A DNA stretch of 64,000 bases from Thermodesulfobacteriota bacterium (GTDB taxonomy: Bacteria; Desulfobacterota; Desulfomonilia; UBA1062): assembly GCA_036825155.1 (NCBI GenBank), contig DAISYU010000001.1, forward strand, positions 17,770 through 81,769. The letters are read 5' to 3'. This document shows positions 37,255-62,096 of the stretch, in pieces. Each line of letters starts with the position of its first letter. The first letter of the stretch is position 1. The position numbers and the translations under genes are program-made. The notes below the pieces were generated by a model. It searched no databases and was not told the origin of the DNA. It was given only the letters and a program-made list of their open reading frames with translations.

Positions 37255-38271
37255 ATGGGAGAGCCCGAGTCAAAAAAACTAAGCGTAGGGAAGGTGCTCA
37301 TCATACAGGTTCTTGTAAGTTTCGTTGTTATCGGCATACTGCTGGCAGCGGCCGGTATGCTTGTTTTCCAGGTCATGGGAAAGGACTACAGCCAATTGAC
37401 CGTTATAGGATTCATTGCAACCACCTACCTGGCATTCATCACCTTTCAGCCGGCAGGGACCATTTTTGCCGCCCGTAAAGAGCTCATAGAAGGAAAAGTG
37501 GAACTGACCCCGGAGGATATGAAGGCAGCATGTGAACAGGTAAGGAATCCCTGGCAGCAGACCCTGCCGCTGGGGTTTTTCATTGCACTCCTGAGTACTG
37601 CCGTGGTTGCCGCGATCATTTTCGGCACCGGATGGAAGCCCACGCCTGCCTTCACCGTACTCCTTGCATTACTCTATGTCTTCCCGCACTATTTCATTAC
37701 AAAGCGTTTTCTAGGCCGCGACCTGGCAACAATGGCTGCTGCAGGCCTGGGGTCGAGTCCACCTGTTCCTTTCCTGCGGGGCTATTTCTGGGGTGCATAT
37801 GTTTTTCCCAACCTCATCTTTCAGGGTATTATAAACGGCGCGCTCGGAAACAGGGCGTTCTCCCAGGAAATGCTGAGATCCGCCCGGCATGGCAGTGAGT
37901 ATATCGGCTTAATACCAACTCCAGCCGTAGGGACTGATCTGGCAGTAACGTTCATGTTTGTGTGCAACTTCACGTTTCTTGGGACCATCATGTACGTGAT
38001 CTCGGATATGTATCAGGGCAAATTCACCTATGAGGGGAATGCACGGGGAATTAACGGATTCCTCTACTTTATCATCATGCTGCTGATGGGACTTGGTATC
38101 GGTCTGTTGCATATTTTCAGTCTCCACGCGATGGGGGTGGCGTACATGTCTTTTGCGCAGGCCATGCTGGCCAAGTTCGCCATTGTCTTTGTTGCCGTGT
38201 CTCTTGGGGCCGGTCTGGCCATGGGATGGACAGGGAAACGGGTGAACGATGCAATAGCTGCAACTTTCTGA
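37255..38271 (+). CDS. Hypothetical polytopic membrane protein
   Basis: 338 aa with about 8 hydrophobic segments; GAGGAGG RBS. Confidence 0.85.
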   Translation: MGEPESKKLSVGKVLIIQVLVSFVVIGILLAAAGMLVFQVMGKDYSQLTVIGFIATTYLAFITFQPAGTIFAARKELIEGKVELTPEDMKAACEQVRNPWQQTLPLGFFIALLSTAVVAAIIFGTGWKPTPAFTVLLALLYVFPHYFITKRFLGRDLATMAAAGLGSSPPVPFLRGYFWGAYVFPNLIFQGIINGALGNRAFSQEMLRSARHGSEYIGLIPTPAVGTDLAVTFMFVCNFTFLGTIMYVISDMYQGKFTYEGNARGINGFLYFIIMLLMGLGIGLLHIFSLHAMGVAYMSFAQAMLAKFAIVFVAVSLGAGLAMGWTGKRVNDAIAATF

Positions 38272-38400: not shown

Positions 38401-39252
38401 ATGGTAAATCTGCGCAACAGGATTGCTGCCGTTACCGGAGCGGCATCAGGCATCGGGAGGATGCTGGCGGTTTCTCTGGCTGATGAAGGGTGCAATATAG
38501 CAATATCGGATGTGAATGAAGCCGGTCTGGAAGAAACTGCCGGCATGATCAGGGACAAGGGTGTCAAGGTCACAACGCATATTGTGGATGTGTCGGACAG
38601 GGAACAGGTGCTGGGCTATGCCGAAGATGTGGTGAAACAGCATGGCAGTGTACACCTCCTGATCAATAACGCGGGGGTCGTGGTATCGGAGACGATAGAA
38701 GATGTCGGCTATGAGGATTTCGAATGGATCATGGGCATCAACCTGTGGGGTGTCATCTATGGATGCAAGGCATTCCTTCCCTATCTCAAGGAAGCCGGCG
38801 AAGCTCATATCGTTAATATCTCCAGTGTAAACGGGATATTCACCAATCCAACCAATGGTCCGTACTGCACGACCAAATTCGCTGTAAGGGGATTTACCGA
38901 GACCCTGTGTCAGGAGTTGAGAAATACGAGGGTACGGGTGAGTTGTGTCCATCCCGGCGGTATAAAAACGAACATCGTTCGCAATGCCCGTTTTTACAAA
39001 GCGGCAGTTGAGCGCTTGAATCATGAACAAACTTCCCAGGCTTTTGAGAAGTATGTCGCGTTTACAACGGCTGAGAAAGCTGCGCAAAAGATAATCGCCG
39101 GCATCAAGAAAGACAAACACCGGATAATGGTCGGTCCGGATGCATACATCTATGACTGGTTGAAGCGGCTGTTCCCTGTAGGGCTCCAGAAACTGGTTGT
39201 CAGCCTGAATGAGCGGCCACGGCTCATAAAGGGTGCGCGGCGAGGTGCTTGA
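38401..39252 (+). CDS. SDR family oxidoreductase
   Basis: TGAASGIG, NNAG, NISS, YCTTK. Confidence 0.95.
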   Translation: MVNLRNRIAAVTGAASGIGRMLAVSLADEGCNIAISDVNEAGLEETAGMIRDKGVKVTTHIVDVSDREQVLGYAEDVVKQHGSVHLLINNAGVVVSETIEDVGYEDFEWIMGINLWGVIYGCKAFLPYLKEAGEAHIVNISSVNGIFTNPTNGPYCTTKFAVRGFTETLCQELRNTRVRVSCVHPGGIKTNIVRNARFYKAAVERLNHEQTSQAFEKYVAFTTAEKAAQKIIAGIKKDKHRIMVGPDAYIYDWLKRLFPVGLQKLVVSLNERPRLIKGARRGA

Positions 39253-39352: not shown

Positions 39353-40654
39353 CTAGAACAGCCAGGTCAGGCCGAATTCTAAACTCGTCTCACTCAGCGT
39401 TGATTCAAGCGTCACCGGCTCTGTCATTAAATCAAGTCCTGTTGTGCCTGTCTGGGATATGGTTTCTTCAAATGCCTGCATATATCCGATATTAACCGAG
39501 AAATCATCAGTGACCTGGATGCCGAGCCCGAGAGTCAGGTGCTGCTCTACGATGGCCGGGAATCCGATGATGCGGAAGGTTTCGTAGTAGTAGGTGGGCA
39601 GCGTAGCACCCTGGACAGTTCTGACGCTGTTCGGCAGCACCTGGGCACCAACGGTCTGGAAGGTGCCGTCAAACCCGTCGTGTTCATTGACCGGATTCTT
39701 GCCGTAATTGTATCCTACCCTGAATGTCAGTCTGTCAGTCGGTTTGAACTGCACACCGATCGCATAGACCCACTGGTCGTCCCAGTCGAAGTCCTTGTAT
39801 CCCTTGGCATCCGACCAGTTCAGCCACTTTGCATCGGCCTCTATGACGAGGTTTGCCGGATCGAGGATCGTGTAGGCTACACCGAACCCGATCTGCTGGG
39901 GAGCCTCGAGTTCGAGATCGTCCAGGGCACCGTTCCAGTCAAAATCCGTGATATTCTTGTGCTTGACCGTCTGAGCGGTGATGTAGCTGGTACCAAACGT
40001 GATCTTGTCGGTCAGGGTGTAGATCAGGCCGGCCTGAAGTCCGTACCCATAATTGGGAGAGGATCCGTCTCTGAGGTCCAGATTAGCATAGTCAACATGA
40101 ATCGCCATGCCGAGAGAAAGATTGTCCAGAGCCTGTACTGCCACAGCAGGAGCAAATTTCATGATCTGGAGATTGGTATACTCACCTGCAATGAGGGGGT
40201 TGCCCATGAAAGCGGTCGGGTTATCCAGATCGGTCCCCCGGTAGTCTACACCGAGGCCTGAAACACCATAGGCAGCGATGCCAAACCGCCAGGACGGGAA
40301 GGTGTCATTGATCGGGACCGAAAGACCGATAGCAGGTATGGCATAGACCTTGTCATCGCTGTCTGCCTGAACGATACCTCCGGATGCGGTGATCTGTTTT
40401 GCATCAACCTTGGGCATGAACAGGGTGCCTGCAAAATCAAAGGTGGTGGCGTTGCAGAACGGGGCAAAACACATGCTCGCGGGATTGGCAAAGACCGCAC
40501 TGATGGCATCCTGCGGTGCAGCTACTCCCACTCCGCCCATGGATCGTGCAATGGGGCCGATGGCGATCATGTTATCACCATTCGTAGCTCGTGCAGCAGA
40601 GGTGATGGCCACAATCATGGCCAGAAAGACAAATATCAGTATACTCTTCTTCAC
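39353..40654 (-). CDS. FadL/TodX family outer-membrane hydrophobic-compound channel
   Basis: Signal peptide, ATNGD...RSMGG, NPAS, beta-barrel alternation, terminal Phe (LTWLF). Start at GTG 40654 after AAAGGAGG (ORF track starts at 40777). Confidence 0.9.
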   Translation of the reverse strand: MKKSILIFVFLAMIVAITSAARATNGDNMIAIGPIARSMGGVGVAAPQDAISAVFANPASMCFAPFCNATTFDFAGTLFMPKVDAKQITASGGIVQADSDDKVYAIPAIGLSVPINDTFPSWRFGIAAYGVSGLGVDYRGTDLDNPTAFMGNPLIAGEYTNLQIMKFAPAVAVQALDNLSLGMAIHVDYANLDLRDGSSPNYGYGLQAGLIYTLTDKITFGTSYITAQTVKHKNITDFDWNGALDDLELEAPQQIGFGVAYTILDPANLVIEADAKWLNWSDAKGYKDFDWDDQWVYAIGVQFKPTDRLTFRVGYNYGKNPVNEHDGFDGTFQTVGAQVLPNSVRTVQGATLPTYYYETFRIIGFPAIVEQHLTLGLGIQVTDDFSVNIGYMQAFEETISQTGTTGLDLMTEPVTLESTLSETSLEFGLTWLF

Positions 40655-40736
40655 AAAAGCCTCCTTTCTCACTATCATTTTTATCATCTGCCGGTTGTTA
40701 CCGATTTTTTTGTCAACAGCGCATGATCTGCCCAGT

Positions 40737-41015
40737 CTATTGATGTTGAGCTGGTTTTTTGCCCTGCAGATAGTCAACGAGCGGTCCCGTGACCAGGGGC
40801 ACCACGTCGCCGATCATGTGCGGCATGAGATTGTCCATAATTCTGGGTGTTAGTTCAGGTATCTGTTCCTGAATGTATCTTGGCGGTTTTTTCAGGTGAT
40901 TTATGAGGCTGGGTACGGCACCGATATCATGGGAGTAGAGCAGCCGCTCTATTTCATCGAATGTCACCCGGGATCCAAAGGTCTGTTCGAGAAAGGAACG
41001 CTTTTCTTTGTTCAT
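40737..41015 (-). pseudogene. 92-aa chimeric remnant: N-terminus of a FAD-binding oxidoreductase joined to an unrelated C-terminal tail
   Basis: Strong AGGAGG RBS and ATG at 41015. First ~38 aa (...FGSRVTFDEIERLLYSHDIGAVPSLI) resemble the start of FAD-binding/(Fe-S) oxidoreductases; the remainder (...ELTPRIMDNLMPHMIGDVVPLVTGPLVDYLQGK) resembles a C-terminal tail. Family resemblance is recalled, not searched. Confidence 0.6.
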
Positions 41016-41329: not shown

Positions 41330-42700
41330 TCAGATCAAGCCGATCTTTTTCGCTTCGAAGGTCAGCTCGTCCCTGAAATCGGGATGGGAAATGGAGATAA
41401 GCTTTTTCGTTCTCTTTTCGATGCTCTCATACCTCAGATTTACCGCTCCGTATTCAGTAACGATATATTGCACGTCATTTCGTGAGGTGGTAACAATCGT
41501 GCCGGCAGGAAAAGTGGGCACGATCTTGCTGTGGAGCGTCCCTGCCTTGTTGGTATAGGATGATTTCAGGGCAATGATGCTCTTTCCCCCGTTTGATTTC
41601 CTGGCACCGTGTACAAAGTTTACCTGGCCCCCGGAACCGCTGTACTGCTTGGTGCCGATGGATTCGGCAGCAACCTGTCCGGTCAGATCGATCATCAAGG
41701 CGGTGTTGACAGAGATGAGATTGTCATTCATTGCGATGATGTCCGGGTTATTGACCCACCCGATCTCCTTGAAGTAGAAGTCATCATTCCTGTTGATGAA
41801 ATCGTAGAATTCCTGCGTGCCCACTGCAAAGGCGGATACGATCTTCCCCGGCATGAAGGTCTTCTTCGATCCGTTGATGACACCTTTCTTCATCAGCTCC
41901 ATGACAGATGGTGTGACGATCTCGGAATGCATGCCCAGATCATTCTTGTCGAGCAGCAGGTGTCCTATGGCATTGGCAAGACCGCCGAACCCGATCTGGA
42001 TCGTAGCGCCGTCGGGAATAAGGTCGGCGATGTATTCTGCCATGGTCTTCTCGGTTTGAGAGATCGGTATCTCAGGAAGGGCAAATATGGGGGCATGGTT
42101 CTCGATAATATGGTCCACCTCTGATACGTGGATCTTGAAATCATCGCTTGCAAGCCACGGTGTGTTCTGATTCACCTCGGCTACTACCACGTCACTGCGA
42201 CGGATACATTCTTCATTCGGGCAGAATGAGCCGAAGCAGGACCTGTTCATATACCCATCCTCATCGGGCGGCGTCGCCATGAAGGCAACCTTGTCAAAGG
42301 TCTTGCTTCTGGCAATATCAGGGATTTCGGCAAGATGAAGCGGGACATAGTGGGCAATCCCCCATTCCATGCAGACCCGTTCCATGGGGCCGACAAACAT
42401 GGTCTCGATATTAAAGCTCTCTTTATATTCGGGCTTCATGTATTCATAGAGATCCATTGCATATCCCTGGTAAATGGTGACATTCCTCAATTCAGAGGCG
42501 CGCAGGCCGACGGCATTGGCAAATGCCTTGGGGATACCGGTCCCGCCTCCGATAAAGAGCATATCGTCCGATTGTACCCCGGCTGCGGCTTCCTGAGCAG
42601 TGCATAACTTTGCCTGGTACAGTTCCTGCCAGGATGAGAAATCTCTATCTGAGGGCAATTGTCGAGCTGGTGCGGACTGATTTATATGAACATGCGACAT
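41330..42700 (-). CDS. Acetyl-CoA hydrolase/transferase family protein (second 4-hydroxybutyrate CoA-transferase-like paralogue)
   Basis: IQIGFGG, GMHSE, SGSGGQVNF, VTTSRNDVQYIVTEYG. Confidence 0.93.
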   Translation of the reverse strand: MSHVHINQSAPARQLPSDRDFSSWQELYQAKLCTAQEAAAGVQSDDMLFIGGGTGIPKAFANAVGLRASELRNVTIYQGYAMDLYEYMKPEYKESFNIETMFVGPMERVCMEWGIAHYVPLHLAEIPDIARSKTFDKVAFMATPPDEDGYMNRSCFGSFCPNEECIRRSDVVVAEVNQNTPWLASDDFKIHVSEVDHIIENHAPIFALPEIPISQTEKTMAEYIADLIPDGATIQIGFGGLANAIGHLLLDKNDLGMHSEIVTPSVMELMKKGVINGSKKTFMPGKIVSAFAVGTQEFYDFINRNDDFYFKEIGWVNNPDIIAMNDNLISVNTALMIDLTGQVAAESIGTKQYSGSGGQVNFVHGARKSNGGKSIIALKSSYTNKAGTLHSKIVPTFPAGTIVTTSRNDVQYIVTEYGAVNLRYESIEKRTKKLISISHPDFRDELTFEAKKIGLI

Positions 42701-43874: not shown

Positions 43875-43943
43875 CCGGATTTGTCTGGTATTGGCAGAGA
43901 CGTATTTGCGTCTCTTTCGTAAAACTTTTTTGAGGAGGGACCT

Positions 43944-46604
43944 GTGGAGCATTTCAGGATGTATATCGGGGGGGAGTTTGTAGATTCCGTAACGGGCAGG
44001 ACCAGAGAATCCATTGATCCAGGGACCGGGATACCTTTTGCCACTGTCGCATACGGTGATGTGTCGGATGCCGAGGCAGCCATCGATGAGGCGCGCAGGT
44101 CCTTTGACTCGGGGGTATGGAGCGGCCTTGACCAGGAAGAGCGCTCCAGGGTAATCATGGATTTCTCAGACCGGCTGACGAAATATATCGTGAAGATAGC
44201 CTCATACGAATCCATGGACTCGGGAGGTATAATCAACAGGACCGGGGCCGAGGTGATGGGGGCATCCATGACGGCGAGGAACCTGGCCTGGTACGCCGCA
44301 CATGATTTCAAATGGCACGAGGAGGTCCGCGTCCCTGCATCACTGGCAAGCCCGGGGAGAAATTACATACGCAGGGAACCGGTCGGGGTGTGCGCAGGTA
44401 TTATCCCCTGGAACTTTCCCTTCGGCATGGCCATGTGGAAGATACTCCATGCCATTACCATGGGTAATTCCATAGTCTTGAAACCCGCCTCCGATACCCC
44501 TGTCAGTGCACTCATTATTGCCGAGGTGATCGCCGAGAGCAAGATCCCAAAGGGAGTGGTGAACATCGTAACAGGATCAGGAACCGAGGTCGGCGAAGCT
44601 CTTTGCAGGAGTGAAAAGGTCGACAAGATCGCCTTTACCGGCAGCACCGAGGTGGGGAAAAACATCATGAAAATGGGTGCGGACACCATCAAGAAGGTTA
44701 CGCTGGAGCTCGGTGGTAAATCTGCAAATATCATCCTCCCGGATGCCAACATGGAACTCGCCGTGGACGGCGGCCTGTTCGGCACGTTCTTCCATTCAGG
44801 CCAGATCTGCGAATCAGGTACCAGAATACTCGTGCACGAGAATATCTATGAAGAATATGTCGGACGCTTCATAGCAAAGGCTGCTGAGATAAGGATCGGA
44901 TACCAGCTCGATACCGCAACCCAGATGGGGCCCCTGGTCAGCGAAATACAGAGGGCAACTACTGAGAAGTATGTGAAGATCGGTCTCGAGGAAGGGGCCT
45001 GCCTCGCATACGGTGGGAAGAGGCCTGAGGGCGATCAATACGCATCCGGCTTTTATTACATGCCCACGGTTTTCACTGATGTTAACAACAGGATGCGCAT
45101 CGCCCGGGAAGAGATATTCGGCCCGGTGGTGTGTATCATGCCGTTCAAGGATGATGATGAGGCAGTGTCCATTGCCAATGATTCAATCTACGGACTTGCA
45201 GGCGGCGTATTCGGGAACGATATCGGGCGTGCCGAGAGGATTGCGCACAGGATAAAAACCGGGACCATGTGGATCAATGACTACCATTCCTTTGCCGACC
45301 TCATGCCTTTCGGCGGATACAAGCAGAGCGGCATCGGCAGAGAACTCGGCGGATACGGGCTATCGGAATATACGCAGATAAAACGTGTCCATGTGTGTCC
45401 TCATGCGGGTGGAGCCCAGAAGTATACGTTTCCCATCATGTTCGACTATCCTCAACCATCGGATTCATTCGCGTTTGAAGGTCCAACCAGGGTGATCTCA
45501 GGTCCTGACAGCATCATTGCGCTGCAGTATGAGATCAGCAAACTGAATTGCCGTCGTGCCGTTATCATCACGGACAAGGGGATACGTTCTGCAGGTCTTG
45601 TGGACAAGGTGAACAAGGCCCTGGGCAATCTCTGTATCGGGGTGTTTGACGAGGTGGTGGAGGATTCAGGCTACCTGGTGGTGGACAAGGCAGTAGCGTT
45701 CTGCAGAGACGTGGGTGCTGACATCCTCGTGAGCCTCGGAGGCGGGAGTTCCATCGACACAGCAAAGGCTGTGGCAGTAACCATTACAAACGGGGGGAAG
45801 GCTATAGACAACATCTCCATCTACAAACTCGTGGACCCGCTCATGCCGCATATTGCCATACCCACAACCGCCGGTACCGGGAGCGAGGTGAGCAATATCG
45901 CAGTTATCAAGAATGAAGAGATCGGCCGGAAATTCAACATTGCAGAGTTCCCCATCGCGCCGAATGTTGCCATACTCGATCCGCACATGACCGTTGGCCT
46001 TCCCAGGATGCTCACAGCGGCAACAGGAATGGATGCACTCTCCCATGCCATCGACGGAATGTGTTCGATCATGAGAAATCCTGTATGTACCGGCCATGGT
46101 CTGAATGCTATCCGGATGATCGCGAAATACCTGCCCGTTGCTGTGGAAGACGGTCATGACGTGCATGCGAGGATGCAGATGCAGATTGCCGCGGCAACTG
46201 CTGGATGGGCATTTTCCATTCCATCCACCATACTGACACATTCACTCGCCCACTGTATCGGGGCGAAGTACAAGATCCACCACGGTACCCTGTGCGGTCT
46301 TTTCCTGCCTCATGTCATGAGGTTCAATCGTGACTATTGTCTTGATGAGCTGGCAATGGTGGCCGAAGCCATGGGTGTTAATACAAGCACCATGTCAAAG
46401 ATCGATGCCGCAGCCTCATCAGCGGATGCGGTGGCTGATCTGGCAGACAGAATCGGGATTCCGGCCCGGTTGAGTGACCTGAACATAGCTGAGGCAGATC
46501 TTGACATGATCGCCCTGGATGCCATGACAGAGATCCCCACCCTCGCCAATCCACGCAAGTGCAGCCTGGAACTCATAGCAGAGGTTGTCCGGGGGGCATT
46601 TTGA
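43944..46604 (+). CDS. Fusion of NAD-dependent aldehyde dehydrogenase and iron-containing alcohol dehydrogenase
   Basis: ALDH: IPWNFP, FTGST, LELGGKS, GQICES, EEIFGPV, GGYKQSGIGRE. Fe-ADH: GGGSSID, PTTAGTGSE, DALSH, THSLAH, HHG. GTG start after GAGGAGG. Confidence 0.93.
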   Translation: MEHFRMYIGGEFVDSVTGRTRESIDPGTGIPFATVAYGDVSDAEAAIDEARRSFDSGVWSGLDQEERSRVIMDFSDRLTKYIVKIASYESMDSGGIINRTGAEVMGASMTARNLAWYAAHDFKWHEEVRVPASLASPGRNYIRREPVGVCAGIIPWNFPFGMAMWKILHAITMGNSIVLKPASDTPVSALIIAEVIAESKIPKGVVNIVTGSGTEVGEALCRSEKVDKIAFTGSTEVGKNIMKMGADTIKKVTLELGGKSANIILPDANMELAVDGGLFGTFFHSGQICESGTRILVHENIYEEYVGRFIAKAAEIRIGYQLDTATQMGPLVSEIQRATTEKYVKIGLEEGACLAYGGKRPEGDQYASGFYYMPTVFTDVNNRMRIAREEIFGPVVCIMPFKDDDEAVSIANDSIYGLAGGVFGNDIGRAERIAHRIKTGTMWINDYHSFADLMPFGGYKQSGIGRELGGYGLSEYTQIKRVHVCPHAGGAQKYTFPIMFDYPQPSDSFAFEGPTRVISGPDSIIALQYEISKLNCRRAVIITDKGIRSAGLVDKVNKALGNLCIGVFDEVVEDSGYLVVDKAVAFCRDVGADILVSLGGGSSIDTAKAVAVTITNGGKAIDNISIYKLVDPLMPHIAIPTTAGTGSEVSNIAVIKNEEIGRKFNIAEFPIAPNVAILDPHMTVGLPRMLTAATGMDALSHAIDGMCSIMRNPVCTGHGLNAIRMIAKYLPVAVEDGHDVHARMQMQIAAATAGWAFSIPSTILTHSLAHCIGAKYKIHHGTLCGLFLPHVMRFNRDYCLDELAMVAEAMGVNTSTMSKIDAAASSADAVADLADRIGIPARLSDLNIAEADLDMIALDAMTEIPTLANPRKCSLELIAEVVRGAF

Positions 46605-46782: not shown

Positions 46783-47829
46783 ATGTCTGAAAAACAGAGC
46801 AAGGTTATGAATGCGAAAGATGCCGTCAGCCGTTTCGTGCATGACGGTGATCATCTGGTTATCGGCAACTATACCGTCGGGACCTGCGCAGAGCTTGCAT
46901 TCGAGATCATCCGTCAGGGAATCAAAGGGCTTACCCTGTATTCCCAGTCAGGGGTTTTTGACGTGGAGGTCCTGGTGGGTGGCGGATGTGTGGACAGATT
47001 GGTTTCCACCTATGTGTATCGTGCAGGAGGGAAAGAAGGGGGTTCTGCGGTTGAGCGTGCAATCAAGGCAGGAACCCTGGAGATGGAGGACTACACGAAT
47101 TTCCAGTACAACGCCCGAATGGAGGCAGGCAAGCATGGGTTCAGCTTCATGCAGGTGCTGGAAGGACCCATGGTGACGGACCTGTTCAAGAAACGCACCT
47201 TTATGGGAGATGACAAGTACAGGGTGATCACGTGCCCGTATACGGGTAAGGATATTCTCACGGTTACGGCTGCAACGCCTGATGTATGTATCGTGCACGT
47301 CCAGCGGGCTGACAGGTTCGGCAACGCTCAGTACTGGGGCGCCCTGGGCAGCGTTGCAGCTGCAGCCCTGGCCAGCAAGCGGATTGTGATCTCGTGCGAG
47401 GAGATTGTGGAGCACGATGTGATCCAGTCCAGTCCCCACCTGACCATCATACCTGCGTATCGCGTCGATGCGGTCGTCGAGGTTCCCTGGGGTGCACATC
47501 CCACAGAGGTGCTCGGCTACTACAACCTGGACCGTCTCATGTATGCGATGTTCTTCATCTCGGACATGACCGGAGACGGACTGAAGGCATGGATGGATGA
47601 ATGGGTGTACGGATGCAGGAACCGGGAAGCCTACATCGATCATTACCTGGAGAAATTCGGCGCGGGAATGCTCAATGACATCAGGGCAAAATCCTACTTT
47701 TCCGCACCGGCGAACTATGGATCGGCATTTACCTCCTGCTGGGACCTTGAAGACAAGGAACGAACCCTGGGTATTACCCTGGAAGAGATGGAGAAGATCC
47801 TGGAAGAAAGGGGGATGCTCTATGGCTAA
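46783..47829 (+). CDS. Two-subunit CoA transferase, alpha subunit (glutaconate CoA-transferase-like)
   Basis: VHDGD, PDVCIVHVQRADRFGNA, VVEVPWGAHP; GGAGG RBS. Confidence 0.88.
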   Translation: MSEKQSKVMNAKDAVSRFVHDGDHLVIGNYTVGTCAELAFEIIRQGIKGLTLYSQSGVFDVEVLVGGGCVDRLVSTYVYRAGGKEGGSAVERAIKAGTLEMEDYTNFQYNARMEAGKHGFSFMQVLEGPMVTDLFKKRTFMGDDKYRVITCPYTGKDILTVTAATPDVCIVHVQRADRFGNAQYWGALGSVAAAALASKRIVISCEEIVEHDVIQSSPHLTIIPAYRVDAVVEVPWGAHPTEVLGYYNLDRLMYAMFFISDMTGDGLKAWMDEWVYGCRNREAYIDHYLEKFGAGMLNDIRAKSYFSAPANYGSAFTSCWDLEDKERTLGITLEEMEKILEERGMLYG

Positions 47830-48646
47830 GAAATACACGCTTGATGAACTGCTGATTATCACCGCTGCACGGGAGATCCATGATTACGAGAACATTATCC
47901 TGGGAGTAGGGCTGCCAACCACTGCAGGGGCACTGGCCAAGGCCATTCACGCACCGCATGCAACACTCATGATGGAATCGGGTATCATAGACTTCGAGCC
48001 GCTGGTTCCACCGAATCATATTGCCGATGCCCATTCATGCAGGGGATTTTCCTATGCCACCGATCTGTTTTCAGCCTTTACCATGACCTACAGGGGATTT
48101 GTGGATGTATGTTTCCTCGGTGTGGCTCAGATTGACAAGTACGGCAACATAAACACCACGGCGATCGGCGACTACTACAAGCCGAAGCTGAGGCTGACGG
48201 GCTCCGGCGGGGCGGCTGATTTCATCTCCTACGCAAGGCGAACCATCCTGACCATGCGTGGTGGGGAATTCGTGGACAAGCTGGACTATTTCACCTCACC
48301 GGGTTACCTCGACGGCGGGGACAGCAGGGAGAGGGCCGGCCTCTTTCCCCCCGGGTCCGGGCCGTCCATGCTGCTGACCACAAAAGGGGTGTTTCGTTTT
48401 GATGAGCAGACAAAGGAGATGTATCTTGCCAGGACACATCCGGGAATGAGTATAGATGACATCAGAAAGGATATCCCCTGGGAGTTGAAGATTGCAGACG
48501 ATGTCTCCACCACTGACAGGCCTACAGATGAGGAGATTACCTTTATCAGGCGGTTCGCTCCCACCGAAGTGGTGGGAAGAAAGCTGATGTTCGAACTCGG
48601 GCTGGCCAATGCCGCCAGGAAAGCCCAGGAAAAGAATAACGGATAG
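47822..48646 (+). CDS. Two-subunit CoA transferase, beta subunit
   Basis: Start MAKKYTLDEL at ATG 47822 overlapping the alpha stop; catalytic-type MESG, LGVAQIDKYGNINTT, GSGGA, FTSPG. Confidence 0.9.
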   Translation: MAKKYTLDELLIITAAREIHDYENIILGVGLPTTAGALAKAIHAPHATLMMESGIIDFEPLVPPNHIADAHSCRGFSYATDLFSAFTMTYRGFVDVCFLGVAQIDKYGNINTTAIGDYYKPKLRLTGSGGAADFISYARRTILTMRGGEFVDKLDYFTSPGYLDGGDSRERAGLFPPGSGPSMLLTTKGVFRFDEQTKEMYLARTHPGMSIDDIRKDIPWELKIADDVSTTDRPTDEEITFIRRFAPTEVVGRKLMFELGLANAARKAQEKNNG

Positions 48647-48958: not shown

Positions 48959-50020
48959 ATGACGGATATATATGAGCAATTGCGCAGGCGCCTCGATGAA
49001 ATGGCCACGGGATATCCCGCGACCGAAAGCGGTGTGGAGATCAGGCTGCTGAAACAGCTGTTCCGTCCGGAAGATGCCCGGATGTTCCTCTCAATGAGTA
49101 CATACGCACAGACTGCCCGTGAAATTGCGGAGAGGACAGGGACAGATACGGACACCACTGCAGCAGTGCTTGAGGATATGGCGCTTCGAGGGCTTGTATT
49201 CAGAGAACGCACAGAGGGGATGAGCTACTACCGGGCGATCCCTTTTATTGTCGGGATCTATGAGTTTCAGATCAATGCCCTCGATGGGACGATGCTCAAG
49301 AACGTTTCCGAGTACTATCTGTCGGGATTGGGTCAGTCGTTCCACTCCCTGAAGACCCCGCACCTGCGCACGATCCCTATCAACAGGGACCTGGTGTCGA
49401 AGTGGCCTGTTGCAACCTATGACGATGCAGTCTCGATTATTGAGAGAAAAGACCGCATTGCCGTGGCCCCGTGTCTCTGCCGCAAGGCGGTCCGTATGTA
49501 CTCTAAAGGCTGTGACCACCCACTGGAGACCTGTCTTCAGTTTGATACGTTCGCGGATTACTATGTGGACAACTCCATGGCACGCTACATTACCAAGGAT
49601 GAGGCTCGTGCCATCCTTGCCCGCAGCGAGAAAGAGGGCCTGGTTATCCAGACTGCGAATTCCAAAGAGGTGGAGGCCATGTGTTCCTGCTGTTCCTGCT
49701 GCTGCGGCATGCTTATCTCGCTCAAGCTGTTCCCTGCGCCGGCCCGCGAAGTGAAGAGCAACTATGTCTGCACCTCGAATGAAGGTTCGTGCACCCTCTG
49801 CGGTATGTGCGTCAAGCGCTGCCCCGTTGATGCCGTTGAACTTCTTGAAGAACATGCACATACCCATGAAGAACGCTGCATAGGGTGCGGGCTGTGCGTG
49901 AGCACCTGTCCTGCCGAAGCACGAACCCTTACAAGGAAGCCTGAAGAGAAGATCTATACCCCTGCGGATACGTTTTTCGACACCTTTGAACAGATGTGCG
50001 AGGAGCGCGGCAGGGATTAA
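48959..50020 (+). CDS. 4Fe-4S binding protein with N-terminal winged-helix-like region
   Basis: PCLCRK, CSCCSCCC, and two CxxCxxCxxxCP motifs at the C-terminus; 353 aa. Confidence 0.88.
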   Translation: MTDIYEQLRRRLDEMATGYPATESGVEIRLLKQLFRPEDARMFLSMSTYAQTAREIAERTGTDTDTTAAVLEDMALRGLVFRERTEGMSYYRAIPFIVGIYEFQINALDGTMLKNVSEYYLSGLGQSFHSLKTPHLRTIPINRDLVSKWPVATYDDAVSIIERKDRIAVAPCLCRKAVRMYSKGCDHPLETCLQFDTFADYYVDNSMARYITKDEARAILARSEKEGLVIQTANSKEVEAMCSCCSCCCGMLISLKLFPAPAREVKSNYVCTSNEGSCTLCGMCVKRCPVDAVELLEEHAHTHEERCIGCGLCVSTCPAEARTLTRKPEEKIYTPADTFFDTFEQMCEERGRD

Positions 50021-50026
50021 GGCTTA

Positions 50027-50971
50027 CTACGGATGCTTGCTCTCACTGTTTTTCTGCCGGTAGCGGATCAGCCGGAAGAACGAGCCCCAGAACCAGTGGG
50101 TCAGTTTGTGCAGGTGTATGCCGATACCTTGCCCGAAGATGGTCCAGCCCAGTTTGCGATGCCACTTGATGAACAGACCGAAATGGCTGCTGGAGACCTT
50201 GCCCCCTCTGATGTACCAGCATTTGGGTGCGAGCTTCGGTTTCCACTTGCCGGTGATGACCTTCAAGACTTCCAGGGCGGCCAGGCTTACCGCCATCCAT
50301 TCCACAGTACAGATGAGGGCAAGGGGCCGTTTTCCGAGGAAATAATCCCAGAACCAGTCTACACGCCAGTCTCCCGCGGTGATGAAGTTGTATTGCGCAC
50401 ACCGGTACTCCCGGGAATGCACGACCTGTTTCAGCCCGTTGTAGTTGAGCGTGGGCACGCCGAATACATCCTCGATGGTCGGGGTTTCCGGTGTAAAGAC
50501 GCTGATCCATCCGATGGATCCGGACGGCAGGCACAGTACGGCAGGTTTCTCAAGTTTCCTGGCAGCCCGGAAGATGAGGACGCTGTATGAAAGGTCATCC
50601 ACTGCAGGGATCACCACGTCGCATTGCTCGATCAGTTGATCCAGGTCTTCTTCAGTGGGGAGCGTGTGGAACGAGGTAACCTGTGCAGCGGGGTTGATTT
50701 TCAGAATTGTCTCGGACATCAGGGTGATCTTGTTTTCGCCTATCGTATCTGTGAAGCATCCGATCTGACGGTTCATGTCACCGGCCTCGTATATGCCCTG
50801 GCCGGCAAGGATAAAATGTTCAACCCCGCACCGAGACAGCAGTAATGCAAGCGTCTCGCCGGAACCGCTGTCGCCGATGATCAGCACCTTAACAGACCTG
50901 ATACGTTCCTGATCATCCTCGGTGAAGACCCCGTAGTTTCGTTCGAACAGGGCCTTGTACGTCAGGTCCAT
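50027..50971 (-). CDS. ThiF/HesA/MoeB (E1-like) family protein, degenerate nucleotide-binding motifs
   Basis: RNYGVFTE..Q.RI..KVLIIG start; P-loop reads GDSGSG; EAGDMNRQ replaces DxxxxSNxNRQ; Trp-rich C-terminal extension. Confidence 0.85.
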   Translation of the reverse strand: MDLTYKALFERNYGVFTEDDQERIRSVKVLIIGDSGSGETLALLLSRCGVEHFILAGQGIYEAGDMNRQIGCFTDTIGENKITLMSETILKINPAAQVTSFHTLPTEEDLDQLIEQCDVVIPAVDDLSYSVLIFRAARKLEKPAVLCLPSGSIGWISVFTPETPTIEDVFGVPTLNYNGLKQVVHSREYRCAQYNFITAGDWRVDWFWDYFLGKRPLALICTVEWMAVSLAALEVLKVITGKWKPKLAPKCWYIRGGKVSSSHFGLFIKWHRKLGWTIFGQGIGIHLHKLTHWFWGSFFRLIRYRQKNSESKHP

Positions 50972-50993
50972 TGTCCCCCCTCAGGGAATTTCA

Positions 50994-51959
50994 TCAAGGC
51001 TTACTCCCCCTGCGCTCGCGAAAATGCCCCCATGCAATGAACAGTTTCCACCAGATCTCCTGAGCCCACTCCAGTACGGGTGACAACCTGGTCTGAAACA
51101 GGCGCCACATGATCTTCCGCTGCCAGACCAGCAGTGTCTGCAGGTTCAGACCGCCTATGCGGTTGATCCTGATGGCGTTCGCGGTGATATTCCAGTAGCG
51201 AGGCGATACTACCGGCTTCCATTTGCCGCTGAGCACCTTGAGCACCTCGAGCGAGCCGAGCGACGAACACAGCCACACAGAGGGGGCTATATGGGTGGGG
51301 GAAGAATCCTCCTCGATAAAGGAGCGGTAGTAGTCGATCCTCCAGTCGGCAAACGGAACATAGAAGTACGTGCCGAACTTGTATTTTCTGATGGCGAGCA
51401 TTTCCTTGAGCTCTTCATACGATCCCAGTGTGGGTACTCCCTCGATGTCCTCCACCGGTGGACTGTCCGGCATGAGTATGCAGACATTCGCCCAGGTGCC
51501 GGATGGGAATATCAACAGGGCAGGTACCCCCAGTCTCTGGGCCTCCCTGAATACGATTACACTGAATGCAAGATCGTCGGCAGCGGGGAATACCACGTCA
51601 ACCCTGGGAATCAGCTCGGAAATCCTCTCATGGTTCAAGAGCTCGGGATATACCTCCACCTGGGCATCAGGATTGATCTTCATGATCTGCTCTCGTATGA
51701 CCTCGGCCTTGTTTCTGCCCAGCGTGTCGGTAAAACAGGCAATCTGCCGGTTCATGTTGGAGAATCCGTAGTTGTCGAATTCCACCAGAATGAAATTACT
51801 CACCCCTGAACGGGCAAGAACAATAGCGACAGTACCGCCAATGCCGCCGCACCCGATAATGAGGACTTTCGAGGTACGGATACGGTCCTGTTCTTTCTCG
51901 GTGAAGACTCCGTAGTTTCTCAGGAAAAGCTCTTGGTAGCCAGGTAGTATATTCATCAA
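50994..51959 (-). CDS. ThiF/HesA/MoeB (E1-like) adenylyltransferase family protein
   Basis: KVLIIGCGGIG, EFDNYGFSNMNRQ, GRNKAE, AADD; no CxxC zinc sites; Trp-rich C-terminal extension. Confidence 0.9.
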   Translation of the reverse strand: MMNILPGYQELFLRNYGVFTEKEQDRIRTSKVLIIGCGGIGGTVAIVLARSGVSNFILVEFDNYGFSNMNRQIACFTDTLGRNKAEVIREQIMKINPDAQVEVYPELLNHERISELIPRVDVVFPAADDLAFSVIVFREAQRLGVPALLIFPSGTWANVCILMPDSPPVEDIEGVPTLGSYEELKEMLAIRKYKFGTYFYVPFADWRIDYYRSFIEEDSSPTHIAPSVWLCSSLGSLEVLKVLSGKWKPVVSPRYWNITANAIRINRIGGLNLQTLLVWQRKIMWRLFQTRLSPVLEWAQEIWWKLFIAWGHFRERRGSKP

Positions 51960-52603
51960 TCCTTTCTTCTATGATGCAATCTGACAGGCAACAGCCCATG
52001 CACAAGTGTAGACAGGAGACATGCTGCTCCCGCACCGATTGCAACGTAGTATGGTTGCAGAAAATACATGAAGACATCGACGTCCACAGTGTAGTGTATA
52101 ATGCCAAGGCCGACAACCGGCATATCCACCAGGGTGCATGCAAACAGAAGCGATCCGAAGAATCCCGCTGCATAGGCAAGCATGAACAAACCGCTCCACA
52201 TGATGAAGAGCCGCCCCTTTTTCCCGGGCATGGTGCTGCCCCAGAAGGCAAGGAACAGGTATCCGAAAAGAACCACCGGGAGCAGTATGACCGCTATGAT
52301 CGGGGTTTCGATAACATACTTGAAGCCTTCAGGCGGAAGATTGTGGATCAGGATGAAGGGATACGCATCGATGGTATACATCCTGTCGTAGACATCTCCG
52401 CGCCACCAGGGGAAGAAGATGGTGCTGAAAAAGACGATTCCGGCAGCCAGGCCGAAAATATTGTAGATGGTGAATTCACGGAAGTGGCCGGTAAACGTCT
52501 TGAGTATATGCCTCATACCCTGGGGATTTGATTCATCCTGCGCCAGACTCCGGCGCGTTGCATCATCGATGAAGATGTTTTCCAGGATCTTAAGAAATTT
52601 CAT
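51956..52603 (-). CDS. Hypothetical membrane protein (about 4 TM)
   Basis: 215 aa; stop overlaps the ThiF start (ATGA). Confidence 0.8.
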   Translation of the reverse strand: MKFLKILENIFIDDATRRSLAQDESNPQGMRHILKTFTGHFREFTIYNIFGLAAGIVFFSTIFFPWWRGDVYDRMYTIDAYPFILIHNLPPEGFKYVIETPIIAVILLPVVLFGYLFLAFWGSTMPGKKGRLFIMWSGLFMLAYAAGFFGSLLFACTLVDMPVVGLGIIHYTVDVDVFMYFLQPYYVAIGAGAACLLSTLVHGLLPVRLHHRRKD

Positions 52604-52695
52604 ATTGTTCCCTTTATAGGTTCAGCATGCGGAAAAATCAAGACAATCGTCCCGGATTCAGGTGTTGCTGCCGCTGTCTTCTCATCCACAGAGCT

Positions 52696-54030
52696 TCAGC
52701 CGGCCAGCACGGCGTCTACTGCATGTGCGAGCTTCTCCTTCGCGGCTGCGATGACATCAGCATCGGACCAGAGAAAGGCCAGCAGGTCCTCTGCCCGGAT
52801 ATGCGCAAAACACAGCAGCAGGATCGGGCAGATTCCGAGCGTCATGGCCAGGGCCGTCTTCTTCTCCCAGGTGTCATATTCATCCGCTGAGCCTGTGGGC
52901 ACAATGCGAGGTATGCCGGATCCGAACATGCGGTAGAACTCAAGTGAGACAGCTCCGGTATCTGAGCTGTTCGCAGTATCCACTGAAGCTGAATGGTTCG
53001 AGGCAAAGAGATCTATGTGCGAGCAGGCTTCCTCGGTAGGAGTGGTCTGGTCCAGCCCTGCAGCTGCGGCAGACGGGTCGATCCCGTTTTCGATACAGTG
53101 TTTCAGCAGCACAACGGCATCAGCCGGGCGCTTCTTTGACAATGCGGCGAATCCTTCATGGTCCAGCAGGAAGACCCCCTGTTTCTTTCCTGCTTTAAAA
53201 AGACTGTGCGAACCAGCCTGAGGGAACTCGAGATAACTCATGCAGGGAAACGGACAATGGTAGCATGCATGGGCCTTCTTGAAATGTTTCTTGATCAGTT
53301 GAGAAGCGGCCTCGCCGGAACCCATGCTTTTCTGCACCACAAACCGGGGGGTGCTGTACTGGTTCTTCAGTGCCGAAGCCATGGGGCCGCTCATTTCTAT
53401 GGCGTGTTCAGGGAAGCGGATCCCTCCGGCAGCCTTCAATGCAATGGCCCGTATATTCTTCTGCCCGACCGCGCAGCCCAGAGAAGCCTTGTCCAGACTG
53501 CCCCAGAGCCCGGTGGAGAGGCAGGCATGTGCAGAGGAGTTATCCGCGGCATTGCCCGTGAGCAGGACGATCTCGGGACAGTTCCTGCCTCGGGCCAGCA
53601 GCAAGTCTTCCCGCTTGGAAAGATCTCCTGCGAGGGTATCGCCTGGAGTGATCCTGATGGTATTGTCTATCAGCTCGATGATCACGGGGGTCTCGCTGCG
53701 GCCTGTGATCACAAGGAAATCAATCCCCGAGAATTTCAGCTGTGGCCCCGTATTGAGCATGAAGGGGACATGCATCACCTTGTTCCCGTTCGAGTAAAAG
53801 CTTGCCGTCATCAGGCACGATGCCGGGGCAAAACTTCCGGTGAGAGGTCCGGTGCCGAATACCAGAGGGGCGTTGTCTGCATAGCGTTCGAGGAGCACGG
53901 TGCTGAGGCGGACCCCTCCTGTATGCTCGGCGAAGAGTTCAGAGGGAAGATCTATGGTCTCCACTGATGAATTCTCGAGATTCACCAGCGCCATCTTTGC
54001 ATTATAAAAAGGGGTCATGAGTACGTCCAT
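52696..54030 (-). CDS. Degenerate aldehyde:ferredoxin oxidoreductase (AOR) family paralogue
   Basis: AOR N-domain traits (LVFGTGPLTG, GPQLKFSGIDFLVITG, KNIRAI), ACYHCPFPC and LGIC; lacks EYET and DPR. Start at ATG 54030 or coupled ATG 54018. Confidence 0.8.
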   Translation of the reverse strand: MDVLMTPFYNAKMALVNLENSSVETIDLPSELFAEHTGGVRLSTVLLERYADNAPLVFGTGPLTGSFAPASCLMTASFYSNGNKVMHVPFMLNTGPQLKFSGIDFLVITGRSETPVIIELIDNTIRITPGDTLAGDLSKREDLLLARGRNCPEIVLLTGNAADNSSAHACLSTGLWGSLDKASLGCAVGQKNIRAIALKAAGGIRFPEHAIEMSGPMASALKNQYSTPRFVVQKSMGSGEAASQLIKKHFKKAHACYHCPFPCMSYLEFPQAGSHSLFKAGKKQGVFLLDHEGFAALSKKRPADAVVLLKHCIENGIDPSAAAAGLDQTTPTEEACSHIDLFASNHSASVDTANSSDTGAVSLEFYRMFGSGIPRIVPTGSADEYDTWEKKTALAMTLGICPILLLCFAHIRAEDLLAFLWSDADVIAAAKEKLAHAVDAVLAG

Positions 54031-55313
54031 GCTTTGACTTCTCCTGGAATGGTTTTCTGCCAGCGAAAGCGGATCTTTGCGGAGCTGTACGGGCAGGTGT
54101 CCACACAACGCATACACAAGATACACTCGTCCATGGGGATCTTGGGCGCGGTCCCCTCTCTGAGGGCTTCACGGTCGATGATGCCCATGGGGCAGATGTC
54201 GGCGCACTGCATACAGGAAAACTTCTTGCACTGCTTGGCCCCGATCACGATCTTGATCAGGCCTATCTTGGCCGCCAGAGCCAGTACGGCACCCACCGGA
54301 CAGAAGTAGCGGCACCATGACCTGCGCTGTCCCAGTTCAAGGCTTGCGATGGCAGGCACAATGGCAAGTTCTGCTCCCTGCAGCACCCCCGATACCCCGT
54401 ACGACCTGCAGATGCTTCCGATGGGGCATACCGTGCAGAAGGGCTGGAATCCCAGGCCGGCAGCCCCGCCGATCGCTCCGCCAAGGATCCCGTACTTGAT
54501 CATGCGGCTTTTCAGAAATTTCGGCAGGCCGAACTTGGGGACGACAGAGCCCACCAGGTCGAGGAAGAACCCGAAGGGACATACCCATCCGCAGAAGGCC
54601 CTGCCAAGAAGGATAGTCAGTACGATGAGCACGAGGGCAGCACCGGCGCTGGCGAACACGATATGCTTGGTTGCGGCGATATTCTGCAGGGTCCCGGTGG
54701 GACAGGGCAGAGAGACCACCCCTGCCGTGAAATAACAGAACGTGCCCACGAGGACCACCACCAGGAGCAGGAATGAGAGCAGCTGTACCGGCCAGCGCAG
54801 ATATTTGATCCATCCTACGGCCTTACCCCGATAGAAGTGCAGTGCCCCTTCAGGACAATGTTTGACGCACAGGGGGTCACCCTCGCACAGGTCGCATTTT
54901 CTGATCTTGCCGGTCACCGGTTCCACCATCGGGGCCGATTCAGGACAGGCAAGGGTGCAGATCCCGCATTCCACACAGAACAGGCGCCTGATGCGCACGA
55001 TTCCTTCATCGTCCTTGTCGATCGCGCGGGTAGGGCAGGCTTCCAGGCAGAGGGGTTCTCTGCAGTGCAGACACAGGGCCGCAAAGTTCTTGCCTTCCTC
55101 TTCGTTGCGCAGGACCTTTATGCTTGACGACGCCGGCGCCACTTTGTCCACATTCCGGTTGGAACAGACCATCTCGCAGGTCGAACACCCGGTACATTTT
55201 GAGGGATTGAATACAATGACCGGCGGATGTCTGGGCAGTTTCTTCTTGGCAGGCAACGGTCTTAAGTCCTTGATATCTATATATTCAACTTGTTTCTGGG
55301 CAGCTTCGGGCAT
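54015..55313 (-). CDS. Fusion of a 4x[4Fe-4S] ferredoxin (DmsB/CooF-like) and a NapH/MauN-like membrane polyferredoxin
   Basis: CTGCSTCEMVC, CLHCREPLCLEACP, CVECGICTLACP, CDLCEGDPLCVKHCP; then TM helices with CGWVCPFG, CTVCPIG, CRYFCPVG, and two C-terminal clusters. Confidence 0.88.
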   Translation of the reverse strand: MPEAAQKQVEYIDIKDLRPLPAKKKLPRHPPVIVFNPSKCTGCSTCEMVCSNRNVDKVAPASSSIKVLRNEEEGKNFAALCLHCREPLCLEACPTRAIDKDDEGIVRIRRLFCVECGICTLACPESAPMVEPVTGKIRKCDLCEGDPLCVKHCPEGALHFYRGKAVGWIKYLRWPVQLLSFLLLVVVLVGTFCYFTAGVVSLPCPTGTLQNIAATKHIVFASAGAALVLIVLTILLGRAFCGWVCPFGFFLDLVGSVVPKFGLPKFLKSRMIKYGILGGAIGGAAGLGFQPFCTVCPIGSICRSYGVSGVLQGAELAIVPAIASLELGQRRSWCRYFCPVGAVLALAAKIGLIKIVIGAKQCKKFSCMQCADICPMGIIDREALREGTAPKIPMDECILCMRCVDTCPYSSAKIRFRWQKTIPGEVKAWTYS

Positions 55314-55330: not shown

Positions 55331-55786
55331 TTACGCATTCCTCAGCAGATATACTTTACGCCTGCAGGCGGGACACATTTCAAGGTATCCCTTGGGTTCA
55401 TCCTTGAGTCGCTCGGTGATAAAGTCCATGACGTGCAGTGCAGCGAAGAGTTCACCGCAGCAGGTGCAGGTGCGGATATCCTTGACCGTTCCCTGCTGGA
55501 TGGCCAGTTGTCTGAGTCCTTTTATGAGATCGCGGTCACTCACCCCTGCAGGGCATACGTCGGTGCCGGCATTGCACTCGGTGCAGTACCAGATGTATTC
55601 GTCGGCAAGGATATCCTCTCCCATCATGACCTTCTTGATCACCCCGCGCGGTGACATCTCGATGGAAAAATTCGGGTACATCTCTGCCATGGGGCACACT
55701 GCCACGCAGCGGCCGCACTCCACACAGCTGTGCGCACCGGAGGCAGTCATGATATCTCTAATCTCTTTTGCACTCTTCATCTTCAT
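55331..55786 (-). CDS. HdrC-like 4Fe-4S protein with C-terminal CxxC...CxxC
   Basis: CVECGRCVAVCP, CTECNAGTDVCP, CTCC...CPAC; ATG 55786 overlaps the fdhA stop (ATGA). Confidence 0.85.
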   Translation of the reverse strand: MKMKSAKEIRDIMTASGAHSCVECGRCVAVCPMAEMYPNFSIEMSPRGVIKKVMMGEDILADEYIWYCTECNAGTDVCPAGVSDRDLIKGLRQLAIQQGTVKDIRTCTCCGELFAALHVMDFITERLKDEPKGYLEMCPACRRKVYLLRNA

Positions 55787-59142: not shown

Positions 59143-59155
59143 AGCGCACCTTCTC

Positions 59156-62085: not shown

Positions 62086-62096
62086 GGGTGCTCCTC

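Follow-up and report, generated by a model that had tools for sequence, protein, structure and literature searches.

The gene at 43944-46604 on the forward strand of the 64,000-nucleotide stretch of Thermodesulfobacteriota DNA analysed here (contig DAISYU010000001.1, positions 17,770 to 81,769; hereafter the window) encodes a protein in which an N-terminal aldehyde dehydrogenase (ALDH) domain of the hydrolytic type is joined to a C-terminal group III iron-dependent alcohol dehydrogenase (Fe-ADH) domain. On sequence comparison it is a further member of the BdhE (bifunctional dehydrogenase E) family, already published in 2025 with a type member from Halomonas eurihalina (PDB 9LDL; Konno et al., Nat Commun, September 2025, PMC12454647), and not a new type of fusion. 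The catalytic residues of both halves are intact, and the genes next to it are conserved in close relatives. We consider it likely that the protein works as a classical hydrolytic ALDH coupled to a group III Fe-ADH, taking an alcohol in one direction to the free acid by the mechanism proposed below. The gene and its parts are as follows.

43932..43938, forward strand: Shine-Dalgarno sequence GAGGAGG, read from the sequence, 5 nt before the GTG start
43944..46604, forward strand: gene for the BdhE-family bifunctional dehydrogenase, a single uninterrupted open reading frame (ORF) with a GTG start, 886 aa, stop codon included
43980..45389, forward strand: N-terminal hydrolytic-type ALDH domain, aa 13-482 (Pfam and alignment to BetB, EutE and AdhE)
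44412-44414, 44706-44708 and 44808-44810, forward strand: codons of the ALDH triad Asn157, Glu255 and Cys289 (alignment)
45390..45482, forward strand: inter-domain linker, aa 483-513, about 31 aa (Pfam borders and family alignment)
45483..46598, forward strand: C-terminal group III Fe-ADH domain, aa 514-885 (Pfam and mapping of the ligands against AdhE and EutG)
45738-45749 and 46032-46283, forward strand: GGGS motif (aa 599-602) and metal ligands from Asp697 to His780; Asp544 also belongs to the Fe-ADH sites (alignment)

The reading frame was found as described in the initial annotation, with every one of the four ALDH motifs quoted there (LELGGKS at 254-260, GQICES at 286-291, EEIFGPV at 389-395 and GGYKQSGIGRE at 457-467). 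As regards the start, homologues share the same MEH[FY] N-terminus. In Pfam, the Aldedh match (PF00171) spans aa 13-482 and positions 2-461 of the 461 in the model (E 2.4e-159), followed by Fe-ADH (PF00465, aa 514-680, E 1.1e-42) and ADH_Fe_C (PF25137, aa 691-885, E 5.2e-46). A search of a collection of 5.8 billion proteins listed 120 homologues that are 52-100% identical and share all four Pfam matches; the conservation counts given below refer to these. Across them the linker is variable in sequence and near-constant in length, positions 490 and 505 alone being gapped in more than 10% of the homologues.

Among solved structures the top match was 9LDL, which is itself 886 aa long (E 5.7e-292 over residues 1-872). 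The two proteins are colinear with a single 1-residue gap and 50.4% identical over 871 aa, with 55.6% identity in the N-terminal part (480 aa) and 45.8% in the C-terminal part (360 aa). To be counted operationally as a BdhE, a protein must be more than 40% identical to a known member in each of its two parts, N-terminal (~480 aa) and C-terminal (~370 aa) (PMC12454647), and the window protein exceeds this threshold in both halves. It also has the defining architecture, in which a single chain longer than 700 aa carries a PF00171 domain in its N-terminal part and a PF00465 domain in its C-terminal part (here 886 aa, with Aldedh followed by Fe-ADH/ADH_Fe_C). For the elongated ALDH-ADH interface loops of BdhE, of which the text of the paper gives no coordinates, colinearity with 9LDL and a near-constant family length were observed. 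The window protein has the domain order, the length and the catalytic residues in both halves in common with the H. eurihalina enzyme, and their ALDH halves form one clade. The hosts differ, being Halomonas in one case and an anaerobic Desulfobacterota metagenome-assembled genome (MAG) in the other, and the window protein falls in a sub-clade (80-100% identity) which has its own operon.

BdhE was defined as an ALDH-ADH fusion family of an origin independent of AdhE, with both domains phylogenetically apart from the AdhE domains; the single-domain enzymes nearest to it are K00128 aldehyde dehydrogenases and K00217 'maleylacetate reductase'-type Fe-ADHs (PMC12454647). The idea that the present fusion arose independently of AdhE, put forward in the initial annotation, is borne out by that study, in which it had already been published. 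Cryo-electron microscopy (cryo-EM) of the H. eurihalina enzyme revealed a ring-shaped homotetramer and no spirosome, the ALDH-ADH tunnel being formed between subunits (PMC12454647). Homology with this solved relative gives no support to spirosome-like filaments, for which the initial annotation had proposed a test. An AF2 monomer model of the window protein (mean pLDDT 81.4) recovered both folds, and a Foldseek search with it ranked 9LDL at the top (E 2.7e-89) and AdhE spirosome chains next, at 20-23% identity.

By alignment, Asn157 corresponds to the oxyanion hole, Glu255 to the general base and Cys289 to the nucleophile, a triad matching Asn170/Glu269/Cys303 (ALDH2-type numbering) of the irreversible ALDHs. 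Glu255 aligns with the general base of BetB, and the same position is Gly in AdhE and EutE. Asn157 and Cys289 were found in all 120 homologues and Glu255 in 119. According to a review of 2025, the Asn/Glu/Cys triad is universal in ALDHs that irreversibly oxidise aldehydes to acids, whereas the family ALDH6, which acylates coenzyme A (CoA), is without the Glu and hence without the hydrolytic water, and the family ALDH20 (EutE/PduP-type enzymes and AdhE) retains the Cys alone (PMC12041015). Because the triad is kept family-wide and is described there as the mark of irreversible ALDHs, one-way oxidation to the free acid appears a plausible outcome on sequence grounds.

In the C-terminal half, the metal ligands D653, H657, H723 and H737 of AdhE map to D697, H701, H766 and H780 (alignment with AdhE and EutG), so the intact metal site noted in the initial annotation, like the short linker preceding it, is confirmed. 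The group III Fe-ADH signature is complete, comprising the Asp-His-His-His metal site and the GGGS nucleotide motif; the four ligands, GGGS and Asp544 are each present in 120 of the 120 homologues.

Comparison of the whole domains leads in the same direction. With E. coli AdhE, EutE, EutG and BetB taken from NC_000913 as references, BLASTP aligned the ALDH half to BetB at 37.7% identity over 485 aa (E 4e-110) and to AdhE at 26% over 151 aa (E 6e-10), and gave no significant match to EutE; pairwise identities of the ALDH domains in the tree comparison were 20% to the N-terminal half of AdhE (AdhE-N) and 16% to EutE. Identity over the whole ALDH domain is 38-42% to the hydrolytic enzymes (E. coli BetB, S. 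aureus BetB 4MPB, B. cereus ALDH 4QF6 and human ALDH2), which have the same triad, the EEIFGPV and GGxKxSGxGRE motifs and a similar fold (target-normalised TM-score ~0.85). These BetB/ALDH2-type enzymes are single-domain proteins, whereas the window protein is fused. In a neighbour-joining tree of ALDH domains, all fusions (the window protein, 9LDL, two fusions on contigs L004 and L005, and the protein P0126) grouped together in 87 of 100 bootstraps; single-domain ALDHs of the hydrolytic type surround this clade, and a very long branch separates it from AdhE-N and EutE. The expectation of a non-acylating ALDH, which clustering with AdhE or EutE would have contradicted, was thus upheld by identity and by the tree. 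The 22 best NCBIfam matches are all non-acylating ALDHs, with betaine-aldehyde dehydrogenase first, and all lie below their equivalog cutoffs. The ADH domain is 45% identical to that of 9LDL, at most 42% identical to single-domain ADHs and 27% identical to the C-terminal half of AdhE.

With AdhE the protein has in common the order of ALDH and then Fe-ADH, a similar length and homologous ADH halves (29% identity, E 2e-45). AdhE channels the aldehyde between its halves, and by analogy the window protein probably does likewise. The ALDH half of AdhE (an ALDH20 member), however, is CoA-acylating and has Gly in place of the general-base Glu, which the window protein keeps, and AdhE forms helical filaments (spirosomes) where BdhE forms ring tetramers. 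The NCBIfam model of AdhE (PRK13805) scored 276 bits against a cutoff of 951, its best stretch covering the ADH half only (aa 514-885). Membership of AdhE was rejected on the ALDH domain type and the PRK13805 score, and homology with the ring-forming relative points the same way as regards assembly. Unfused pairs of ALDH and Fe-ADH (gbsA-gbsB, the K00128-K00217 'BdhE sisters' and a pair on contig L011) likewise combine an ALDH with a following Fe-ADH in functional coupling, but as separate polypeptides without a fused linker. For the unfused pairs no ALDH-ADH contact was predicted, and gctA/B genes adjoin the sister pairs (PMC12454647).

In the mechanism that we propose, the Fe-ADH domain would oxidise a primary alcohol to the aldehyde with NAD+, and the aldehyde would reach the ALDH domain of a partner subunit by way of a tunnel between the subunits, as happens in the ring homotetramer of the solved homologue. 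There Cys289 would form a thiohemiacetal and then a thioester, which water activated by Glu255 would hydrolyse to the free carboxylic acid. The pathway would be effectively one-way and would keep the concentration of free aldehyde low. A CoA transferase resembling GctAB, encoded immediately downstream, would probably turn the acid into a CoA thioester for breakdown of the beta-oxidation type, and the likeliest class of substrate would be a hydrophobic (medium- or long-chain) primary alcohol. As regards the cofactor of the second step, residue 183, which corresponds to the position of Glu195 in NAD-specific ALDH2-type enzymes, is Ser in the window protein and Ser or Thr in 119 of the 120 homologues; on general grounds of ALDH cofactor specificity, the ALDH half may accept NADP+ as well.

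The proposals on the CoA transferase and on the substrate draw on the genes around BdhE, which in the window are the following (contigs carrying relatives are given L numbers).

39353..40777, reverse strand: FadL/TodX-family outer-membrane channel for hydrophobic compounds (Pfam Toluene_X, E 1.9e-20); also in L094
41330..42700, reverse strand: AcetylCoA_hydro-family CoA transferase (Pfam), divergent from BdhE; also in L094 and L095
43035..43874, forward strand: classical short-chain dehydrogenase/reductase (SDR) (Pfam adh_short, E 4.4e-57), 69 nt upstream of BdhE
46783..47829, forward strand: glutaconate-CoA-transferase-like subunit A (Pfam CoA_trans; best PDB match 1POI_A, GctA, E 1.2e-41)
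47822..48646, forward strand: glutaconate-CoA-transferase-like subunit B (best PDB match 1POI_B, GctB, E 3.1e-47)
48959..50020, forward strand: protein of 353 aa, weakly matching winged-helix models at its N-terminus (MarR_2/TrmB) and with a 2x[4Fe-4S] domain at its C-terminus (Pfam)

The SDR gene and BdhE are probably co-transcribed. Subunit A of the transferase starts 178 nt downstream of BdhE and is overlapped by subunit B over 8 nt, the two being translationally coupled; subunit B keeps the catalytic glutamate of the ESG motif (Glu52), as aligned with GctB. The 353-aa protein always follows the GctAB-like genes, with 81-99% identity in L084, L094, L095 and L096, and may be a redox-sensing regulator of the cluster. 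A scan for promoters and terminators was uninformative: promoter-like sites were fewer than expected from shuffled sequence, and the hairpins were all weak, including one at the stop codon of BdhE with a stem of 5 bp. The divergent CoA transferase at 41330..42700 resembles butyryl-CoA:acetate or 4-hydroxybutyrate CoA transferases and scored 331 bits, below the cutoff, with the NCBIfam model TIGR03948. A second AcetylCoA_hydro-family paralogue lies at 12357-13691 on the forward strand; it resembles butyryl-CoA:acetate CoA-transferase, again below the equivalog cutoff.

The order SDR-BdhE-CoAT_A-CoAT_B-Fer4 recurs in L094 and L095, which are of the same lineage (99-100% identity). In a ~91%-identical lineage (L084, L096) BdhE-CoAT_A-CoAT_B-Fer4 recurs, with the SDR upstream in L084, while the L096 contig ends 275 nt upstream of BdhE. 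The SDR-BdhE-GctAB-like-Fer4 cluster was not found around BdhE relatives at 46-82% identity, and a wider conservation of the SDR-BdhE core was dropped as a candidate, the SDR upstream of BdhE in L089 being just 30% identical to that of the window. Since the cluster of BdhE and CoA transferase is confined to the window and ~91% lineages, the hand-off of the acid to the adjoining transferase, as envisaged in the initial annotation, is a reasonable view of the window operon but is not a property of the family.

Other branches of the family have other recurrent neighbours. In L089 and L090 (81% identity) BdhE is directly followed by an SdsA1-type alkyl sulfatase (Lactamase_B, Alkyl_sulf_dimr and Alkyl_sulf_C) and then by a PF01663 phosphodiesterase-family enzyme, and in L085, L091 and L097/L098 (57-58% identity, three lineages) an orthologous SCP2 gene of 137-140 aa lies directly downstream.

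L089 3951-7570: alkyl sulfatase and PF01663 genes downstream of BdhE (domain matches)
L090 2843-6462: alkyl sulfatase and PF01663 genes downstream of BdhE (domain matches)
L085 10804-11217: SCP2 gene
L091 10908-11321: SCP2 gene
L097 8859-9281: SCP2 gene
L098 5903-6325: SCP2 gene

SCP2 is a lipid-binding domain. The BdhE-SCP2 pair, which is not mentioned in the BdhE paper (PMC12454647), adjoins pentose-phosphate genes (L085, L097, L098) and/or dnaA (L091, L097, L098). An alkyl sulfatase frees a fatty alcohol, after which an ADH and an ALDH are needed to reach the fatty acid (PMC4207315), and the context in L089 and L090 suggests that alkyl sulfates are converted to fatty acids in this way, with the fatty alcohol as intermediate. 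The window itself encodes a long-chain-fatty-acid-CoA ligase, scoring above its curated NCBIfam cutoff, as well as an acyl-CoA dehydrogenase, an enoyl-CoA hydratase and a 3-hydroxyacyl-CoA dehydrogenase. Owing to the SCP2 and alkyl-sulfatase neighbours, together with the FadL/TodX channel and the beta-oxidation genes of the window, hydrophobic primary alcohols are our best guess at the substrate class, and we offer this assignment tentatively, as a weak one. The initial annotation had proposed a hydrophobic or toxic aldehyde; the SCP2 and alkyl-sulfatase neighbours in other clades lend some support to this idea. The BdhE paper left the substrates open, and these recurrent neighbours (SCP2, alkyl sulfatase and the GctAB-like transferase) provide the first concrete leads to them.

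Several observations weigh against the proposed one-way route or its details. The fusion ADH clade (without P0126) was recovered in a simple neighbour-joining tree in just 30 of 100 bootstraps. The inter-domain geometry of the AF2 model differs from that of 9LDL (TM 0.50, rmsd 32 A), as might be expected of an enzyme in which the working ALDH-ADH contact is made between subunits; confidence is low around the ALDH active site, and the model was not used for inferences on tunnel or oligomer. The neighbourhood varies across the family, with BdhE solitary in Desulfatitalea (L086/L087) and in L093 and followed by a UxaA-like dehydratase in L088 (82% identity), so that the substrate may differ between clades. 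The nearest solved relative of the GctAB-like transferase uses short dicarboxylates (glutaconate), which by analogy would fit an omega-hydroxy acid as the starting compound at least as well as a fatty alcohol. Finally, the H. eurihalina enzyme showed acetyl-CoA-dependent NADH oxidation and was treated as functionally redundant with AdhE (PMC12454647); if this activity is genuine and physiological, the ALDH half of BdhE can use thioesters.

An omega-hydroxy acid would be oxidised to a dicarboxylate (for example 4-hydroxybutyrate or 5-hydroxyvalerate to succinate or glutarate), which the GctAB-like transferase would then activate. Besides the kinship of that transferase with glutaconate CoA-transferase, this agrees with the NCBIfam scores of the ADH half against 4-hydroxybutyrate dehydrogenase (261 bits) and of the ALDH half against succinate-semialdehyde dehydrogenases (~350 bits), and with the divergently transcribed gene nearby that resembles 4-hydroxybutyrate or butyryl-CoA transferases. 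All of these model scores are, however, below the cutoffs, and relatives outside the window lineage have no such transferase and have SCP2 or alkyl-sulfatase neighbours. We regard this substrate as rather unlikely; it is in any case a variant of the one-way route, with the same chemistry and another substrate, and no true alternative to it.

An alternative is the one favoured by Konno et al., in which BdhE is an analogue of AdhE with a CoA-acylating, reversible ALDH half that interconverts acyl-CoA and alcohol and could run reductively in fermentation. The H. eurihalina enzyme oxidised ethanol in the presence of CoA, as well as choline, and NADH with acetyl-CoA, and the phylogenetic distributions of BdhE and AdhE do not overlap; a CoA transferase adjoining BdhE could moreover supply acyl-CoA, as was suggested for gctA/B beside the sister families (PMC12454647). 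All three activities were slower than those of AdhE, however, the ethanol assay always contained 200 uM CoA-SH, and the sole control described in the methods and supplement was one without enzyme (PMC12454647). With CoA-SH always present and the no-enzyme control only, the published equivalence of BdhE to AdhE rests on no test of CoA dependence. The hydrolytic Glu255, lost in the CoA-acylating ALDH6 and ALDH20 families and kept in nearly every homologue, speaks against an acylating enzyme, as do the identity of 20-26% to the N-terminal half of AdhE, the lack of a significant EutE match and the low PRK13805 score confined to the ADH half. On this balance we hold an AdhE-like function to be unlikely, and the family-wide catalytic residues argue that the published assignment (acetyl-CoA to ethanol) may be wrong or incomplete.

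It is very unlikely, in our estimation, that the protein is a fused equivalent of the GbsB/GbsA pair, serving osmoprotection or catabolism by oxidising choline to glycine betaine with betaine aldehyde as the intermediate. Betaine-aldehyde dehydrogenase (TIGR01804, 526.8 bits) is indeed the NCBIfam model that scores highest with the ALDH half, choline dehydrogenase GbsB (NF053866, 279.8 bits) ranks second with the ADH half, and S. aureus BetB is the top single-domain match in the PDB. These scores are nevertheless well below the curated cutoffs of 668.6 and 550, respectively, by which membership of either equivalog was ruled out. The oxidation of choline by BdhE can be regarded as non-specific, because AdhE also oxidised choline in the same assay (PMC12454647). 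The window genes scanned included neither a transporter nor a regulator for choline or betaine, glycine betaine would offer the CoA transferase no role, and the neighbours found in other clades (SCP2 and alkyl sulfatase) speak for another substrate.

The weakest explanation, that two neighbouring genes appear as one because a stop codon was missed or the sequencing or assembly went wrong, has a negligible probability, for although unfused neighbouring pairs of ALDH and Fe-ADH do occur naturally (for example in Cytobacillus, L011), the ORF is continuous, a 100% identical gene is present in independent assemblies from other samples (L094, L095), 118 of the 120 listed homologues are full length (at least 860 aa) and 85 of them exactly 886 aa, and an 886-aa homologue has a cryo-EM structure (9LDL); the missed stop codon against which the initial annotation had cautioned, and an assembly chimera, were thereby ruled out.

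Returning to the one-way oxidation of an alcohol to its acid, a broader proposal would be that BdhE is no functional twin of AdhE but a CoA-independent one-way module from alcohol to free acid, which anaerobic Desulfobacterota would have joined to varied catabolic clusters for hydrophobic primary alcohols, for instance fatty alcohols freed by alkyl sulfatases, with SCP2 as a dedicated carrier in some clades and a GctAB-like CoA transferase to activate the acid in the present one. In this general form we consider the proposal possible but doubtful. If the ALDH half is hydrolytic, BdhE would be a compact, aldehyde-safe catalyst from alcohol to acid, with possible uses in biocatalysis.

The family is larger than had been reported. 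At least 118 full-length BdhE relatives (as 90%-identity clusters) were found, mostly in Desulfobacterota MAGs (Desulfatitalea, Desulfarculus and Syntrophales), as compared with 47 BdhEs counted in GTDB genomes (PMC12454647), which makes BdhE far commoner in the metagenomes of anaerobic Desulfobacterota than the published genomes indicated. When a 161-residue query across the domain junction was searched against a library of representatives at 50% identity, 61 proteins were found at E <= 1e-10 and only seven of the listed representatives spanned the whole query; the family is therefore compact in sequence space, this result being a measure of compactness and not a count of its members.

A scan of contigs for generic ALDH/ADH motifs returned mostly single-domain ALDHs, with two further fusions (L004, L005) and one unfused pair (L011) among the matches listed. 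A near-full-length match from Eubacterium (L037) was rejected as a fusion, as it holds just a 524-aa ALDH ORF. The unfused pair, at 9983-12822 of L011 (Cytobacillus sp. S13-E01), consists of an ALDH of 508 aa and an Fe-ADH of 407 aa whose genes lie 90 nt apart and which share 42% and 34% identity, respectively, with the corresponding halves of the window protein; it looks like the state before fusion, in agreement with the published model in which neighbouring genes fused. The protein P0126 (888 aa) is a divergent ALDH-Fe-ADH fusion with its ALDH half in the BdhE clade and its ADH half outside; it may be a BdhE that has diverged strongly, the product of a domain swap or another independent fusion.

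Some other genes of the window may be mentioned. At 37255-38271 on the forward strand, flanked by the beta-oxidation genes on one side and a second SDR (38401-39252) on the other, lies a gene for a protein of 338 aa that is predicted to cross the membrane several times and is matched by no Pfam or NCBIfam model. A hybrid-cluster protein, AOR-family proteins and an FdhA/MvhD/HdrA-like module are likewise encoded in the window. On the reverse strand, 50027-55313 contains two tandem ThiF-family (E1-like) genes, a 215-aa membrane ORF, a 476-aa ORF with an AFOR_N match and no AFOR_C match, and a polyferredoxin; this block also follows the BdhE cluster in L094. Beyond it, also on the reverse strand, 55783-62786 encodes an FdhA-like molybdopterin oxidoreductase, an FlpD/MvhD protein, two HdrA-like FAD/4Fe-4S proteins and a polyferredoxin, a set that resembles the formate-linked modules for electron bifurcation typical of anaerobic Desulfobacterota. 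An ORF with an AOR C-terminal domain lies at 62901-63818.

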